A DNA stretch of 64,000 bases, taken from positions 105,958,001 to 106,022,000 of the forward strand of contig OX597814.1 of the NCBI GenBank assembly GCA_951406725.2, in the 5' to 3' direction. The first letter of the stretch is position 1; each line of letters opens with the position of its first letter. Below, one piece after another: positions 4,817 to 64,000 of this stretch. The translations under genes were made by a program, and so were the position numbers. This DNA is from Octopus vulgaris. Its lineage: Eukaryota. The notes under the pieces were generated by a model. The model saw nothing but the letters and a program-made list of their open reading frames with translations. It was not told the DNA's origin and did not search any database.

Positions 4817-5290
4817 TATATATATATATATAAAGTCTGTTGGTATGTATTTATACACATATATATTTATATGTGTGTGGCGCGTCTGTGTTTGCCCTCC
4901 CACACCGATTGACAACCGGTGTTGCTTTCTTTACGTCCACCGGTTCAGAAAAAGCTGAGCAATAAAATAAGTACTAAGTTCGTTTAAACACTCTTGAAAG
5001 TGGTACTCCAGCATGGCCAAACACCAGTGACTGAAACGAATAAAATATGAAAGATAAAAGCTTTGTTTATATGCATACATACATACATGCTTATACACAC
5101 ACATATATATATATATACATATTTTTTTCACTTCATCTAGTTTCAACTGACGAGCTGTGGCCATTCGGTGTTGCTACATGATTTTACTTCACGAATGCAT
5201 TTTAGCATAGTATATATATATATATACACGCACATACAAATACACACATATATATATACATAATAGACATCACATATTCAAATATATATA

Positions 5291-5324
<34 letters not shown>

Positions 5325-5407
5325 GGTATGTAGAAAAATACAACATGGACAAGAACGTATAACTCTTAGAAGACGACACAATAAACACGGACAGGACATT
5401 CGAAACC

Positions 5408-5502
5408 CTCAGTCTTCAGTCAAGAACCGGATCATCGTAGTAATTTCGGCTGATTAATCTTGAGATTACTAGATCACGGCCAGCCCTCCAAGAAAAACCA
5501 AG
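5408..5502 (-). ncRNA. Putative non-circularly permuted hammerhead ribozyme, array copy 1
   Basis: Minus strand reads uaguaaU-C-ucaaga-uuaa-ucagcc-GAA-auuacua-...-ucuuga-CUGAAGA. Helix III is 7 bp and helix I is 6 bp, both perfect and abutting the core. Predicted cut between 5464 and 5463. Confidence 0.6.
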
Positions 5503-6252
5503 CAACGAGCATTAGAAAAACTAAGCTGGAAGCGTAGATTTCCTGGAAGAAGGATCGAATGCATACGAACACCAGGACAGCAAAAGGGACAGATATAAAA
5601 AAACAAAAAACAATAATGGAATACAGAAACATGAAATACAGAAGCATTAACGGTGAAAACAACAGTGTCTTACGACTGATAACAAGCAAACAAATTTTTT
5701 TCTCTGGCGCAATGGAAAAAGCCTTTATAGTGGCGGACGAAAACAGCGATGTTAACAGAACGAGGGTCAGAGGCTGAAAGGCAGATTTCGGCCAACAGTC
5801 ACGTGACAGAGAAGAGGGAAAAGAAAAGAAAGAGAAGCAAAGGAAGAGAGAGAGAGAGAGGAGGGACAAACGCAACAAAGAGAGAGAAGAGAGAGAAAGA
5901 AGGAATCAGAGAGGAGAAGGGATGGGTGTCGAAGAATGACCTGTGAGTGCAGAGCGAGACAAAGAAATAGGAGGGTAGTGGAAGACTAGACCAAAGAATC
6001 AGAGGAAAGAGAAGAGAAAAAGAGGATGAGTAGAGAGAAAAGAGAGAGAGGGGGACAGATCAAGTAAAAATGAGAGAGAGAGAGACAAACAGAGAGTCGT
6101 ACCAATTATTAAGAATATGTGCTCACATAAATGTTAAGGGGGGTACGGGGCGCCTGGAATATATGTTAAGGTATGTAGAAAAATACAACATGGACAAGAA
6201 CGTATAACTCTTAGAAGACGACACAATAAACACGGACAGGACATTCGAAACC

Positions 6253-6347
6253 CTCAGTCTTCAGTCAAGAACCGGATCATCGTAGTAATTTCGGCTGATT
6301 AATCTTGAGATTACTAGATCACGGCCAGCCCTCCAAGAAAAACCAAG
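6253..6347 (-). ncRNA. Putative permuted hammerhead ribozyme, array copy 2
   Basis: Same motif as copy 1, offset 845. Confidence 0.6.
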
Positions 6348-7096
6348 CAACGAGCATTAGAAAAACTAAGCTGGAAGCGTAGATTTCCTGGAAGAAGGAT
6401 CGAATGCATACGAACACCAGGACAGCAAAAGGGACAGATATAAAAAAACAAAAAACAATAATGGAATACAGAAACATGAAATACAGAAGCATTAACGGTG
6501 AAAACAACAGTGTCTTACGACTGATAACAAGCAAACAAATTTTTTCTCTGGCGCAATGGAAAAAGCCTTTATAGTGGCGGACGAAAACAGCGATGTTAAC
6601 AGAACGAGGGTCAGAGGCTGAAAGGCAGATTTCGGCCAACAGTCACGTGACAGAGAAGAGGGAAAAGAAAAGAAAGAGAAGCAAAGGAAGAGAGAGAGAG
6701 AGGAGGGACAAACGCAACAAAGAGAGAGAAGAGAGAGAAAGAAGGAATCAGAGAGGAGAAGGGATGGGTGTCGAAGAATGACCTGTGAGTGCAGAGCGAG
6801 ACAAAGAAATAGGAGGGTAGTGGAAGACTAGACCAAAGAATCAGAGGAAAGAGAAGAGAAAAAGAGGATGAGTAGAGAGAAAAGAGAGAGAGGGGGACAG
6901 ATCAAGTAAAAATGAGAGAGAGAGAGAGACAAACAGAGAGTCGTACCAATTATTAAGAATATGTGCTCACATAAATGTTAAGGGGGGTACGGGGCGCCTG
7001 GAATATATGTTAAGGTATGTAGAAAAATACAACATGGACAAGAACGTATAACTCTTAGAAGACGACACAATAAACACGGACAGGACATTCGAAACC

Positions 7097-7191
7097 CTCA
7101 GTCTTCAGTCAAGAACCGGATCATCGTAGTAATTTCGGCTGATTAATCTTGAGATTACTAGATCACGGCCAGCCCTCCAAGAAAAACCAAG
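7097..7191 (-). ncRNA. Putative permuted hammerhead ribozyme, array copy 3
   Basis: Same motif as copy 1. Confidence 0.6.
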
Positions 7192-7940
7192 CAACGAGCA
7201 TTAGAAAAACTAAGCTGGAAGCGTAGATTTCCTGGAAGAAGGATCGAATGCATACGAACACCAGGACAGCAAAAGGGACAGATATAAAAAAACAAAAAAC
7301 AATAATGGAATACAGAAACATGAAATACAGAAGCATTAACGGTGAAAACAACAGTGTCTTACGACTGATAACAAGCAAACAAATTTTTTCTCTGGCGCAA
7401 TGGAAAAAGCCTTTATAGTGGCGGACGAAAACAGCGATGTTAACAGAACGAGGGTCAGAGGCTGAAAGGCAGATTTCGGCCAACAGTCACGTGACAGAGA
7501 AGAGGAAAAGAAAAGAAAGAGAAGCAAAGGAAGAGAGAGAGAGAGGAGGGACAAACGCAACAAAGAGAGAGAAGAGAGAGAAAGAAGGAATCAGAGAGGA
7601 GAAGGGATGGGTGTCGAAGAATGACCTGTGAGTGCAGAGCGAGACAAAGAAATAGGAGGGTAGTGGAAGACTAGACCAAAGAATCAGAGGAAAGAGAAGA
7701 GAAAAAGAGGATGAGTAGAGAGAAAAAGAGAGAGAGGGGGACAGATCAAGTAAAAATGAGAGAGAGAGAGAGACAAACAGAGAGTCGTACCAATTATTAA
7801 GAATATGTGCTCACATAAATGTTAAGGGGGGTACGGGGCGCCTGGAATATATGTTAAGGTATGTAGAAAAATACAACATGGACAAGAACGTATAACTCTT
7901 AGAAGACGACACAATAAACACGGACAGGACATTCGAAACC

Positions 7941-8035
7941 CTCAGTCTTCAGTCAAGAACCGGATCATCGTAGTAATTTCGGCTGATTAATCTTGAGATT
8001 ACTAGATCACGGCCAGCCCTCCAAGAAAAACCAAG
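7941..8035 (-). ncRNA. Putative permuted hammerhead ribozyme, array copy 4 (in the partial unit)
   Basis: Same motif. The partial unit ends at 8046, just beyond the structure. Confidence 0.6.
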
Positions 8036-8150
8036 CAACGAGCATTATATATATATATATATTTATATATACATATAAATATATATATGACATGACATAT
8101 TCAAATATATATACATAAATATATATCTGTCTATCTATCTACATATATAT

Positions 8151-27209: not shown

Positions 27210-27534
27210 TTCTGCTCTTCAAATCTATCTTTGATATCGCTCGTTTCTCTGGCAGTTTATCTCTCACTTCGCTCTTCTATGAATATATGTTATAAACTCA
27301 AGCATTTTGATGTATGTGTTAAACATTTGGCTGACGTAGTTATCATTTAGGACAATTACTAAGTTGACTACCTTTGGAGGCGATCGATGGCTATTGTGAC
27401 TGAACACGGTTATGAGTGAGTTTAGGCGGATGTCAGGGTTTACCGAGGTAAGTCAATAGAAGCTGCAAAGCATTCCACCACGAATAATAATGGCGACCTT
27501 TGGTATGAGGAACACATATCTTCAGAACTAATAA

Positions 27535-27752
27535 TCCTTTCTTTCTATAGGCACAACACGTGAAATTTCGAGGCGCAACAGCTGATCGATTACATCGACC
27601 CCAGTACATAACTGGTACTTATTTTATCAACCTCGAAAGGATGAAAGGCAAAGTCGAACTCGGCGAAATTTGAATTCGGAACGCAAAGGCGAACAAAATG
27701 CCTCTAAGCATTTTGACGGGCGTGCTAAATATTATGTCAGCTCGCCGCCTTA
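27535..27752 (-). mobile_element. SINE family A copy
   Basis: cgaaaggatgaaaggcaaagtcgaactcggcgaaatttgaa...cagctcgccgcctt. Confidence 0.8.
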
Positions 27753-28096: not shown

Positions 28097-28351
28097 TGCC
28101 AGAATTGCTTAACGGTATATCGTCTGCCGTTACGTTCTGAGTTCAAATTCCACCGAGGTCGACTTTGCCTTTCATCCTTTTGGGGTCGATTAAATAAGTA
28201 CCAGTTACGCACTGGGGTCGATATAATCGACTTAATCCGTTTGTCTGTCCTTGTTTGTCCTCTCTGTGTTTAGCCCCTTGTGGGTAGTCAAGAAATAGGT
28301 ATTTCGGCCGTCTTTACGTTCTGAGATCAAATTTCCGCCGAGGTCTACTTT
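28097..28351 (+). mobile_element. SINE family A copy plus the start of a second module
   Basis: gttctgagttcaaattccaccgaggtcgactttgcctttcatccttttggggtcgat, matching 31670-32297. Confidence 0.85.
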
Positions 28352-30010: not shown

Positions 30011-30240
30011 CTTTATTAAAAAGCAGCAAAAATATCACAAAACTGTTACTCAGAGTTTCACGTTCCCGTTCGTCAGACACTTTTGTTTAGAAATAAAATT
30101 ATCCGAAGAAAGGGAACGTGAAACTCTGAGTAACAGTTTCTGTGATATTTTTGCTGCTTCTTAATAAAGCATATTGCTCTACTTTTGGTATTCGAGTACT
30201 ATTTTTACCACCTTGTTTCGTATTTATGTGTTTACTCTGG
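30011..30240 (+). mobile_element. Penelope-like fold-back pLTR insertion in (TA)n (arms about 30011-30075 and 30103-30169, then an unpaired tail)
   Basis: Inverted arms each carrying an HHR; TA/TG microsatellite flanks. Confidence 0.8.
30044..30079 (-). ncRNA. Minimal type I hammerhead ribozyme; degenerate mirror copy on + at 30100-30135
   Basis: ugu-CUGACGA-acg-ggaa-cgu-GAA-acuc-u-gagU-A-aca: complete core, 3-bp helices I and II, near-palindromic helix III typical of Penelope-associated minimal HHRs. Confidence 0.8.
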
Positions 30241-30265
30241 TATATATATATATATATATATATAT

Positions 30266-30631
30266 ATCAAAATAAGCAACAAGGATATCCAAGGTAGTGT
30301 AGTACAATCGTTTCATGCTACTTCATTTTATTAAACACTGTAAGTATTACATCGGTTTTAAAATGTCGAGCAATCTTCAGCCACATATAGAATTTTTTTA
30401 ATTAAATGGACAATGGCTGAAGATTGCTCGACAATTTAAAACTGATGTAATACTTACACTGTTTAATAAAATGAAATAGCACAAAACGATTGTACTACAC
30501 TACCTTGGATATCCTTGTTGCTTATTTTGATTATAATCATCCCATTTGATTTATATGGATAATACCATACCAAATTCTGGTGCCTTTAACTTAAATACCA
30601 TATTCATCTGAAACTAAATTTTGCTGAACTT
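30266..30631 (+). mobile_element. Second Penelope-like fold-back insertion (arms about 30266-30383 and 30414-30531, tail to 30631) in (TA)n
   Basis: Arms are reverse complements; related to 12858-13724; TA runs on both sides. Confidence 0.8.
30298..30385 (-). ncRNA. Type I hammerhead ribozyme with elongated helix II; mirror + copy at 30414-30499 has GAAA changed to AAAA
   Basis: ugugg-CUGAAGA-uugcu...cauuuua...uguaa-uac-uuaca...uaaaaug...agcau-GAA-acgauugU-A-cuaca. Confidence 0.7.
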
Positions 30632-31669: not shown

Positions 31670-32297
31670 GCGGCAAGCTGGCAGAAACGTTAGCAGGCCG
31701 GGCGAAATGCTTAGCGGTATTTCGTCTGCTGTTACGTTCTGAGTTCAAATTCCGCCGAGATCGACTTTGCCTTTCATCCTTTCAGGGTTGATAAATTAAG
31801 TACCAATTATGCACTGGGGTCGATATAATCGACTTAATCCGTTTGTCTGTCCTTGTTTGTCCTCTCTGTGTTTAGCCCCTTGTGGGTAGTAAAGGAATAG
31901 GTATTTTAAGGCGGCGAGCTGGCAAAAGCGTTAGCACGCTGGGCGAAATTCGTAGCCGTATTTCGTCTGCCGTTACGTTCTGAGTTCAAATTCCGCCGAG
32001 GTCGACTTTGCCTTTCATCCTTTCGAGGTCGATTTAATAAGTACTAGTTACGCACTGGGGTCGATATAATCGACTTAATCCGTTTGTCTGCCCTTGTTTG
32101 TTCCCTCTGCATTTTGTGGGTAGTAAAGAAATAGATATTTCGTCTGCCACCACGTTCTGAGTTCACATTCCGCCGAGGCCGACTTTGCCTTTCATCCTTT
32201 CGGGGTCGATAAATTAAGTACCAGCTGCGTACTGAGGTCGATCTAATCGACTGGCCCCCCTCCCCCAAAATTTCGGGCCTTGTGCCTAGAGTAGAAA
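31670..32297 (+). mobile_element. Head-to-tail cluster of three SINE family A modules
   Basis: Repeated ggcggcgagctggc...gttctgagttcaaattccgccgaggtcgactttgcctttcatcctttcggggtcgat at about 31670, 31909 and 32136. Confidence 0.88.
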
Positions 32298-62653: not shown

Positions 62654-63436
62654 CAAACATATATACGTACATATATATACATATATACATAGATACACAC
62701 ATACACAGACATACATACATATATACATAAATGCATATATGTGTGTGCGTGTCTGTGTATATGTATATATATATATACATATACACATATATATACACAC
62801 ATACACATATACATACACACACACATACATGCCTGTTTATGTGTGTGTGTGTGTATGTGTGTGTGTGTATGTGTGTGTGTGTGTGTGTGTGTCGAAAGAA
62901 GCATTCTTGTTGCATTAGCTAAGACGGTGCTTCTAGCGCGAAGGCGCTGAGATGCTAGTGGTGAGTGTTTGTACTTGTGTTGGGTGGAGGGTTATCCATC
63001 TACCGAGTACTCTTACGATCTATCTCCAATATACTACTAAATATAATGTGTTGCGGTGAACGGCAAGATTTTCCATTTGCTTGTTTTACTTTGACAAAAT
63101 AGACATGTTTTATTTATGCACCACTCTCCCTCTCCCCTCCCTGTCTCTCTGTGTATATATGTATATATATATATATATATATATTACAGATGCATTCATA
63201 CTTTATATATATGCAGAGTGCGACGGAAAGACCTCCCTGATTGCACATGGGCATTGCGTGGCGTTAGGGAAGTTAGACAAGCGGTAACGGTGCTTTAATG
63301 TAGCTAAGGTTTTATCGTCTGTCTTTCAGTACGGACTCGTTTACACCCTGTGCTCGCTGTTGAAACGTTTACCAACCTGCAAAAATGTGGGAGGATTTTT
63401 ACCGCACCCTACACACGCACACAACACAAACGTTTC

Positions 63437-63728
63437 TCCAGCAATATCATCTATTGCATCTCCTGCTCTCTCTGCCATTCCCTGTACATCGGACAAACGG
63501 GACGCCGCTTGGCTAACCGGTTCGCGGAACACCTCCGAGACATCCGCCTCGCCACTGGCACTCCAGTCTAACGCCATTTCCGCTCCACCGGTCACTCCTT
63601 GCAACACCTGTCTGTGTTCGGATTGTCCTTGCACACAGAGGCCATCCGGATTCCCGCTCTTTTACGCCATTTGGGATTCCCGCTCTTTTACGCCATTTGG
63701 GTTCAACTCTCCCTCCCTTTTCATCTAA
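63437..63728 (+). pseudogene. Penelope-like element GIY-YIG endonuclease remnant, followed by a CT-rich tract to the window end
   Basis: SSNIIYCISCSLCHSLYIGQTGRRLANRFAEHLRDI...PV*RHFRSTGH...TPFGFN, with an in-frame stop, a frameshift and a 26-bp tandem duplication at about 63649-63700. Confidence 0.88.
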
Positions 63729-64000
63729 CCTCCTCTCCGACTCCTACTTCTCTTCACTTCTACATCTTTTCACCCTACTCTCTTTCTCTATTTTCCCCTA
63801 CTCTCTTTCCCTTCTTCCCTCTTCTTCCCTTCTTTCCCTTCTTCACCCTTCTTCCCTCTTCTTCCCTCTTCCCCTCTACTCTCTTTCTCTCTTCTCCCTT
63901 ACTCTCTTTTCCCTTCTCTCTTTCTCTCTGCTCCCTCACTCCCTTTCTCTCCCCTCTTCCCCTCCCCCTTCCCGTGCCCCTCTCTTCTCTTCTCTCCTCC

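Follow-up and report, generated by a model that had tools for sequence, protein, structure and literature searches.

A hammerhead-like ribozyme in a putative new linear order in a tandem array of Octopus vulgaris and in Naiad retroelements

An 844-bp tandem array within a (TA)n tract

We analysed a 64,000-nucleotide stretch of Octopus vulgaris DNA (contig OX597814.1 of assembly GCA_951406725.2, positions 105,958,001 to 106,022,000 of the forward strand; hereafter the window), which contains a tandem array with a hammerhead-like ribozyme motif in every unit. The array occupies positions 5321-8046, with the minus strand as its ribozyme-bearing (sense) strand. It consists of three head-to-tail units of 845, 844 and 844 bp (unit 1, 5321-6165; unit 2, 6166-7009; unit 3, 7010-7853) and a partial unit of 193 bp (7854-8046), i.e. 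2,726 bp or 3.23 units in total. Unit 1 carries the 3' end of the element at 5321. The partial unit is a 5'-truncated copy that begins 50 nt 5' of its predicted cut and contains one whole ribozyme; we treat it as the equivalent of a pseudo-long terminal repeat (pseudo-LTR), as defined in section 6 of PMC8557442.

The three full units differ at seven alignment columns, which reflect five changes in the length of T, G, A and AG runs, and by no substitution. Most of the length differences fall within a CT-rich low-complexity tract of the minus strand (AG-rich on the plus strand), which in unit 1 lies at approximately 5808-6100. The partial unit is identical to a full unit over 194 nt. The unit has a GC content of 42%, and its longest stop-free frames encode 143 amino acids on the minus strand (mainly F, L and S) and at most 79 on the plus strand; no signs of a gene were found in its reading frames. 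The original prediction, made from the letters of this DNA, had described a near-identical, non-coding 844-bp array in a TA run whose units differ mostly in run lengths, and this description held.

Both ends of the array run into (TA)n (left flank, 5282-5320; right flank, 8047-8088). The right end also shows TA microhomology (8045-8047), so that a target duplication cannot be read. A 5'-truncated upstream copy that includes the ribozyme, inserted into an AT-rich microsatellite, agrees with the Penelope-type tandem that had been proposed. Among the matches listed for the unit elsewhere in the window there were only low-complexity ones. Every full unit also contains, on the minus strand, a palindrome and a hexamer that we take to be E-box-like and TATA-like, respectively (5807-5798 and 5729-5724 in unit 1, together 5724-5807). 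These motifs, for which no control was run, are a possible internal RNA polymerase II promoter ∼265 nt upstream of the cut.

A predicted hammerhead fold opened between A9 and G10.1

When the three hammerhead blocks were sought in any order on both strands of the unit, a single compact solution per unit was obtained, on the minus strand, with the blocks in the order cleavage site (S), GAAA (G), CUGANGA (C). The core (C3-U4-G5-A6-N7-G8-A9, G12-A13-A14-A15.1 and U16.1-H17) is complete in all four copies, which lie on the minus strand at 5413-5485 (predicted cut 5464/5463), 6258-6330 (6309/6308), 7102-7174 (7153/7152) and, in the partial unit, 7946-8018 (7997/7996). One ribozyme per unit and minus-strand cuts ∼844 nt apart had both been anticipated, and the predicted cuts are indeed spaced 844-845 nt. 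Relative to the predicted cut, the 5' boundary of the element lies 50 nt upstream and the 3' boundary 143 nt downstream.

The whole fold spans 73 nt of one unit. Stems I and III have six Watson-Crick pairs each, stem III with the A15.1-U16.1 pair in addition, and stem II has five, closed by G10.1-C11.1. The strand 5' of GAAA forms stem II with a strand (7174-7170 in unit 3) that is located upstream of the cleavage site and not after A9. The segment directly 3' of 7174-7170 pairs with the segment directly 5' of the CUGANGA-side strand of stem I in an interaction helix of 8 bp with one bulge. In unit 3, read 5' to 3', the fold comprises the stem II 5' strand (7174-7170), the interaction helix (7169-7161), the stem III strand with U16.1 (7154) and C17 (7153), stem I (7152-7147), a linker (7146-7142), the stem II 3' strand (7141-7137), GAAA (7136-7133), stem III (7132-7127), a 4-nt bulge, the interaction helix (7122-7115), stem I (7114-7109) and CUGAAGA (7108-7102). 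The linear order on this predicted fold is thus stem II 5' strand, interaction strand, site, GAAA, other interaction strand, stem I and, last, CUGANGA.

Stems I and III with six Watson-Crick pairs each, together with CUGANGA, GAAA and UH inside 100 nt, occurred in none of 3,000 dinucleotide shuffles (both strands). A looser scan of 1,000 shuffles matched six strands at 3+3 pairs and one at 4+4; because the scanner does match shuffles at looser settings, the zero is not a bug. No Rfam family reached its gathering score in the window, and on 5300-6300 no Rfam hammerhead was found at E ≤ 10. The original prediction had the partial unit end 11 nt beyond the ribozyme structure, a figure that apparently rests on the minimum free energy (MFE) rod (z −0.81) and not on the ribozyme fold. 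It had also allowed the three core strands to assemble from three successive units, which is unneeded because the fold is complete within one unit and is present in Naiad elements, discussed below, that are annotated 'no pLTR'.

The motif does not have the circular C-G-S order with nested stems of types I, II and III, since its order is S-G-C. It has two features of type SGC, the block order and the interaction helix between stems I and II, and lacks the third, a stem II placed 0-2 nt after CUGANGA. If stem II is placed right after A9, it has 0, 0 and 1 pairs for an insertion of 0, 1 and 2 nt, and the best stem II on that side, with four pairs, needs an insertion of 5 nt. The block order would also be that of an ordinary type SGC ribozyme in which stem II is damaged in this copy, or is made by these four pairs 5 nt downstream of A9, with an incidental complement upstream.

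Type SGC has been validated in vitro and, according to Eckert 2023 (PMC10085705), is present in no genome of a known organism; its examples and those of type CSG come from metatranscriptomes and metagenomes, CSG being known from two metagenomic sequences. The octopus ribozyme has the core, the pseudoknotted connectivity and the short linker between stems I and II in common with types SGC, CSG and GCS. Its interaction helix is attached at the same points (the CUGANGA-side stem I strand and the stem II 5' strand) as in the validated SGC-2 of the oligonucleotide table. It differs in the place of the break, which lies within block C, between A9 and G10.1; judged from the sequence, it is the SGC/CSG/GCS pseudoknotted topology opened at a fourth place. 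The six permutations in PMC10085705 were counted with block C, including the A9-G10.1 link, taken as uninterruptible, and the octopus ribozyme is none of them because this block, assumed to be indivisible, is broken. Its N7 is A or G and no G follows the core, so that the published SGC pattern cannot match it. In contrast to the environmental examples, it resides in an animal retroelement.

Hammerheads of Penelope-like elements (PLEs) often have one unpaired base between positions 9 and 10.1, and a break at this place is therefore structurally plausible. The minimal dimeric type I hammerheads of PLEs (Cervera and de la Pena 2014, PMC4209133) also tolerate this base and have the same pseudo-LTR position, whereas the octopus ribozyme has a full stem III of 6-7 bp and a non-circular order. 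Just 3' of A9, each copy contains a UUCGAA palindrome (5399-5404, 6244-6249, 7088-7093 and 7932-7937, minus strand), which is retained in four otherwise different contig tails and resembles a degenerate GAAA block from a minimal type I hammerhead; this GAA-like motif has neither a stem II nor a cleavage site. Perreault 2011 (PMC3088659), Weinberg 2019 (PMC6765202) and PMC13725137 report small core insertions, a bipartite mammalian hammerhead and unspecified 'alternative permutations', and the A9-G10.1 break is absent from the variants described in the parts of these papers used here. The split-core arrangement was not found in the published literature searched, which was mostly outside subscription papers.

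Variation in the octopus family and the same layout in Naiads

A unit-length stretch (6596-7439) was compared with the contigs and reads of 4 of 24 sequencing runs, among which we guess X5 to be DNA and, by guess only, X3 to be RNA. X5 yielded 2,195 contigs, of which 767 were at least 99% alike, 446 were 95-99% alike, 588 were 90-95% alike and 394 were below 90%. As 767 of 2,195 contigs are at least 99% alike, the family is young and multicopy. The summed contig depth in X5, which is not a copy number, was 1.1-2.2 million at 7089-7146 as against ∼50,000-500,000 in most other covered bins, and the contigs include a wider set of sequences that have only the core in common. The divergent contigs cease to match at 7102 (A9; 20 cases), 7105 (N7 to G; 18) and 7156 (stem III; 22), so that the segment common to them corresponds to the catalytic core.

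The most frequent change, found in 117 contigs and 73% of the depth, is at 7130 and replaces an A-U pair of stem III by G-U; at 7156, 22 loose ends start with the base that makes this pair G-C. The upstream stem II strand is in register in these ends, which have a median length of 12 and an agreement of 0.72, while 7 of 10 adjacent bases differ. Among the loose ends listed (136 further ones exist), the 10 nt after A9 differ in four of four tails. No change at ≥4% is listed in GAAA or in stems I and II, and across contigs and Naiads only N7 varies in the core. The idea that this copy has lost two stem II bases was rejected on contig variation.

X3 contained one 874-nt contig without a differing letter, which corresponds to the 844-nt unit plus a 30-nt terminal overlap and thus forms a closed cycle, unbroken at either end of the element. 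The cycle is consistent with circles or with long multimers, from tandem DNA or RNA alike, and is no proof of a circle because an insert of 1.23 units already holds both junctions. The same contig is unspliced and gives no support to an intron suspected by eye within the CT-rich tract, although one joint at repeats was left out of this comparison. The X3 cycle also bears on whether the count of 3.23 units could be an assembly artefact, or peculiar to one individual, in an otherwise real family. The units differ in simple-run lengths only, a pattern also expected from long-read errors; raw reads of the element were not found and no listed contig spans a flank. An unbroken cycle nevertheless suggests that junction-spanning molecules far outnumber ends in X3, and multicopy head-to-tail non-autonomous PLEs have been described (PMC8557442). 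We consider such an artefact quite unlikely, and it would leave the ribozyme finding untouched. X19, an RNA run from organism B, gave two contigs at a depth of 3-5, outside the ribozyme.

Naiads are PLEs reported to be without canonical hammerheads, to prefer (TA)n and to form partial tandems (PMC8557442). We compared by eye the last ∼330 letters of 52 consecutive Naiad consensi from the supplement of that paper and found the split layout in 9 of the 52 3' ends (7 clean, 2 with mismatches), with other motifs or none in view in the remaining ends, so that this count and those below are lower bounds. The nine represent six independent sequence sets, whose stems are unrelated to each other and to the octopus array, and include two Octopus families and one Euprymna family. 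The lengths of stem II, interaction helix, stem III and stem I are 6, 5, 4 and 6 bp in Obim and Ovul, 6, 10, 11 and 6 bp in Amil and Anas (with a 5-nt linker as in the octopus array), 5, 8, 5 and 4 bp in Movir-2 and 4, 8, 4 and 5 bp in Chem-3. Bfor has 6, 15 and 6 bp in the first three and only 2 bp in stem I; Aacu and Esco are the two with mismatches. The catalytic positions and a cleavable NUH are retained across these unrelated sequences, and stem covariation is visible by eye across the consensi, together with the one stem III change in the contigs (no formal statistic).

A further 6 of the 52, from nematodes (Nbra-1, -2, -3, Hcon, Hpol and Asuum), have by eye a type CSG hammerhead with a long interaction helix. 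Eight Naiad cases are described in PMC8557442 as having a 'half core', the other half being 35-50 nt away on either side, and the two layouts account for four of them (Ovul, Esco, Nbra-3 and Hpol). CSG hammerheads or a twister-like motif occupy the same position in other Naiads; the latter is at the 3' end of Movir-1. Several bivalve and hemichordate Naiads have another conserved 3' motif in common, which might be a further ribozyme.

The Naiads also bear on an ordinary type SGC ribozyme. In all nine, the strand before GAAA pairs over 4-6 bp with the upstream strand and never with the tail that follows A9. In the octopus family, two divergent tails turn the G-U of the 4-bp pairing after A9 into G-C, which favours it, but two other tails lose its closing pair and no insertion after A9 is listed among the 2,195 contigs. 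We therefore regard a conventional stem II as very improbable.

Proposed activity and mobility of the octopus element

The explanation we favour, with a probability of roughly 0.7, is that the array is a recent insertion of a non-autonomous, retrozyme-like Penelope element that carries a hammerhead in a new linear order and was most likely inserted by a reverse transcriptase/endonuclease of the Naiad type targeting (TA)n. As read from the sequences, the fold is very probably a conserved hammerhead homologue, and we have good reason to predict that the family self-cleaves. We lean, with somewhat less assurance, towards the fuller proposal of an active hammerhead in a seventh linear order, with the core strand detached from stem II. 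Such a hammerhead would be widespread in cnidarian, chordate and cephalopod Naiads (the host groups of Bfor, Chem, Amil and Movir were inferred from the abbreviations), with CSG in nematodes. Here, a young retrozyme of octopus type would have amplified it and would yield 844-nt monomers or circles, and its activity might require two copies to come together in the same transcript.

The class of PLE-derived tandem retrozymes is already known, and the arrangement of the ribozyme is the new part. Non-LTR retrozymes (PMC7229834; Li et al. 2026, bioRxiv 10.64898/2026.07.22.740005) are, like the octopus array, non-coding tandems with one hammerhead per unit, a GC content below 45%, few units per locus and a proposed PLE origin, and the array has what defines them as tandems, a hammerhead in at least two successive units. 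They are, however, defined by type I hammerheads, which the array lacks, and their units are typically 170-400 nt (51-972 in the 2026 preprint) as compared with 844. Circular RNA has been demonstrated for them, whereas the octopus array is known from sequence.

In the proposed mechanism, minus-strand transcripts would arise from the internal promoter or by read-through. Folding would most probably involve a single unit, in which a hinge would separate stem III from the interaction helix. Cleavage after AUC would release monomers of 844-845 nt from multimers. A PLE enzyme acting in trans would then nick (TA)n and prime 143 nt 3' of the cut, and an uncut multimer or a re-ligated circle would serve as the template and give the partial tandem. 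With 50 nt of the copy lying beyond the cut, the cut linear monomer cannot be the sole template. By analogy, an uncut multimer would fit the data on the Anolis PLE (PMC11167929) and a re-ligated circle copied more than once would fit the retrozyme model; that a circular monomer exists is a tentative suggestion, at slightly less than even odds.

Several observations weigh against this explanation. The same array is obtained by unequal recombination of a 1.23-unit insert between pseudo-LTRs. The best nested fold in ViennaRNA is a rod that hides CUGAAGA and differs from the ribozyme (the rod itself is not significant, and MFE folding cannot represent a pseudoknotted fold), and for the circular monomer the predicted folding does not exceed that of shuffles (z −0.48). 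A fold within one monomer is strained because stem III and the interaction helix are joined by both links; according to PMC10085705, a single short link is already difficult to reconcile with the crystal structure. The contig alignment collects matching pieces only and so inflates the apparent conservation, and the Naiad layouts were compared by eye, without an alignment statistic or a computation. In X23, a run with the same species label, none of the raw reads in 1,934 million letters was ≥90% alike and none lay over the core, with only 47 low-complexity reads found; judging by the element reads and not by the flanks, we infer that X23 is not the same kind of genome as the element-bearing runs. 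The stem I-core motif of the octopus family had no match in Craig's consensi, and cephalopod Naiads have been called long inactive (PMC8557442). Finally, 8 of 9 predicted Xenopus retrozyme dimers failed to cleave, and initiation by the Anolis PLE, the one PLE studied in vitro, is internal, with cleavage dispensable for insertion (PMC11167929).

These last results are also what would be expected if the motif were a conserved pseudo-LTR element that does not cleave or depends on protein, for example a signal for reverse transcriptase binding or for the 3' end. In that case the array would have arisen by partial-tandem insertion and unequal recombination, and there would be no monomer or circular RNA. 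The Anolis hammerhead cleaved only with protein, the best nested fold of the octopus unit is inactive, and the cyclic contig does not decide about a circle. Yet the catalytic positions and NUH are conserved across unrelated Naiads with N7 alone varying, and the CSG or twister-like motifs in the same position of other Naiads suggest that cleavage is selected. We consider a non-cleaving element improbable.

A second possibility keeps the same split ribozyme but restricts its activity to a domain-swapped dimer. In each unit, stem III and the interaction helix would make up a rod, and its 24-nt loop (site, stem I, stem II 3' strand and GAAA) would interact with the flanks of another rod (stem II 5' strand, and stem I with CUGANGA). 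Cleavage would need the pseudo-LTR or a tandem transcript, and a monomer circle would be spared. Stem III and the interaction helix can indeed form a nested hairpin of −11.6 kcal/mol with a 0-nt link on one strand, the partial unit supplies exactly one extra ribozyme, and minimal PLE hammerheads and amphibian retrozymes have been described as dimeric. Against an obligate dimer, stem III is separated from the interaction helix by an asymmetric bulge or loop in every split-layout Naiad, which favours a hinge. Two of these Naiads are annotated 'no pLTR' (PMC8557442), and SGC and CSG ribozymes cleaved as single constructs (PMC10085705), in a text that leaves dimers possible. Dimer-only activity thus appears unlikely, although it deserves more weight than the other alternatives, and we prefer folding within one unit.

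The octopus element resembles Naiads in its (TA)n target and in its partial tandem with a 5'-truncated upstream copy, and differs from them in having no open reading frame and in its size (844 bp compared with 3.4-4.4 kb; PMC8557442). Its stem sequences are unlike those of the Octopus Naiads, and it is young, whereas the cephalopod Naiads have been described as old remnants. The original prediction pointed to an autonomous Penelope element sharing the unit; none was found among Craig's consensi, in which no match to four short motifs was seen either (for one of them, among 24 of its 29 places). The Naiad clade is characterised by an N-terminal GIY-YIG domain, a CxC motif and a reverse transcriptase, and the octopus element is non-coding. 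A Naiad is nonetheless the rather likely mobilising partner, an assignment made because of the ribozyme layout and the (TA)n target, and only these.

In the rest of the window, which is microsatellite-rich animal DNA without tRNA genes, a broken GIY-YIG endonuclease remnant of a Penelope-type element, with one in-frame stop, was found at 63425-63680 on the plus strand (Pfam PF01541 at 63425-63571, E 0.00011). Downstream of it, up to the end of the window, there is a CT-rich tract and no reverse transcriptase, in the pattern of PLEs with a C-terminal endonuclease. A link between the unit and this tail had been suggested, but the match (63690-64000) is compositional: its score of 66 compares with 58 ± 8 for shuffles, 47 of 300 of which scored as high. 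Other hammerhead candidates were rejected as well. A loose split-hammerhead match at 27525-27634 (minus strand; 0 in 20 shuffled windows) has a 3-bp stem I and long spacings and lies across a SINE-like (short interspersed element-like) end, and stem II is missing from two looser matches at ∼17.1 kb and from another within an inverted repeat at ∼30.4 kb. Pattern matches in JGI metagenomes (7 loci) and IMG/VR (20) are due to chance, none of the 27 having stems I and III. A long near-perfect inverted repeat between TA runs at ∼30270-30530 is MITE-like (resembling a miniature inverted-repeat transposable element) or a foldback, and a second, shorter one lies at ∼30030-30165. A 241-bp SINE-like repeat, which we take to resemble the octopus OK family, is present in 1.8 tandem copies at 31670-32109, with more at ∼27600-27750 and ∼28100-28350.

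If the proposed ribozyme is real, there would be a hammerhead topology beyond the six thought possible, and the A9-G10.1 backbone link would be dispensable. Retrozyme surveys would undercount because standard descriptors and Rfam screens miss the split motif. Naiads have been taken as evidence that PLEs proliferate without hammerheads, yet at least 15 of the 52 consensus ends (9 split and 6 CSG) appear to carry a permuted one, and the view that Naiads spread without hammerheads would be an artefact of the descriptor. Non-circularly permuted ribozymes would then be common, at high copy, in animal genomes, beyond the environmental RNA.

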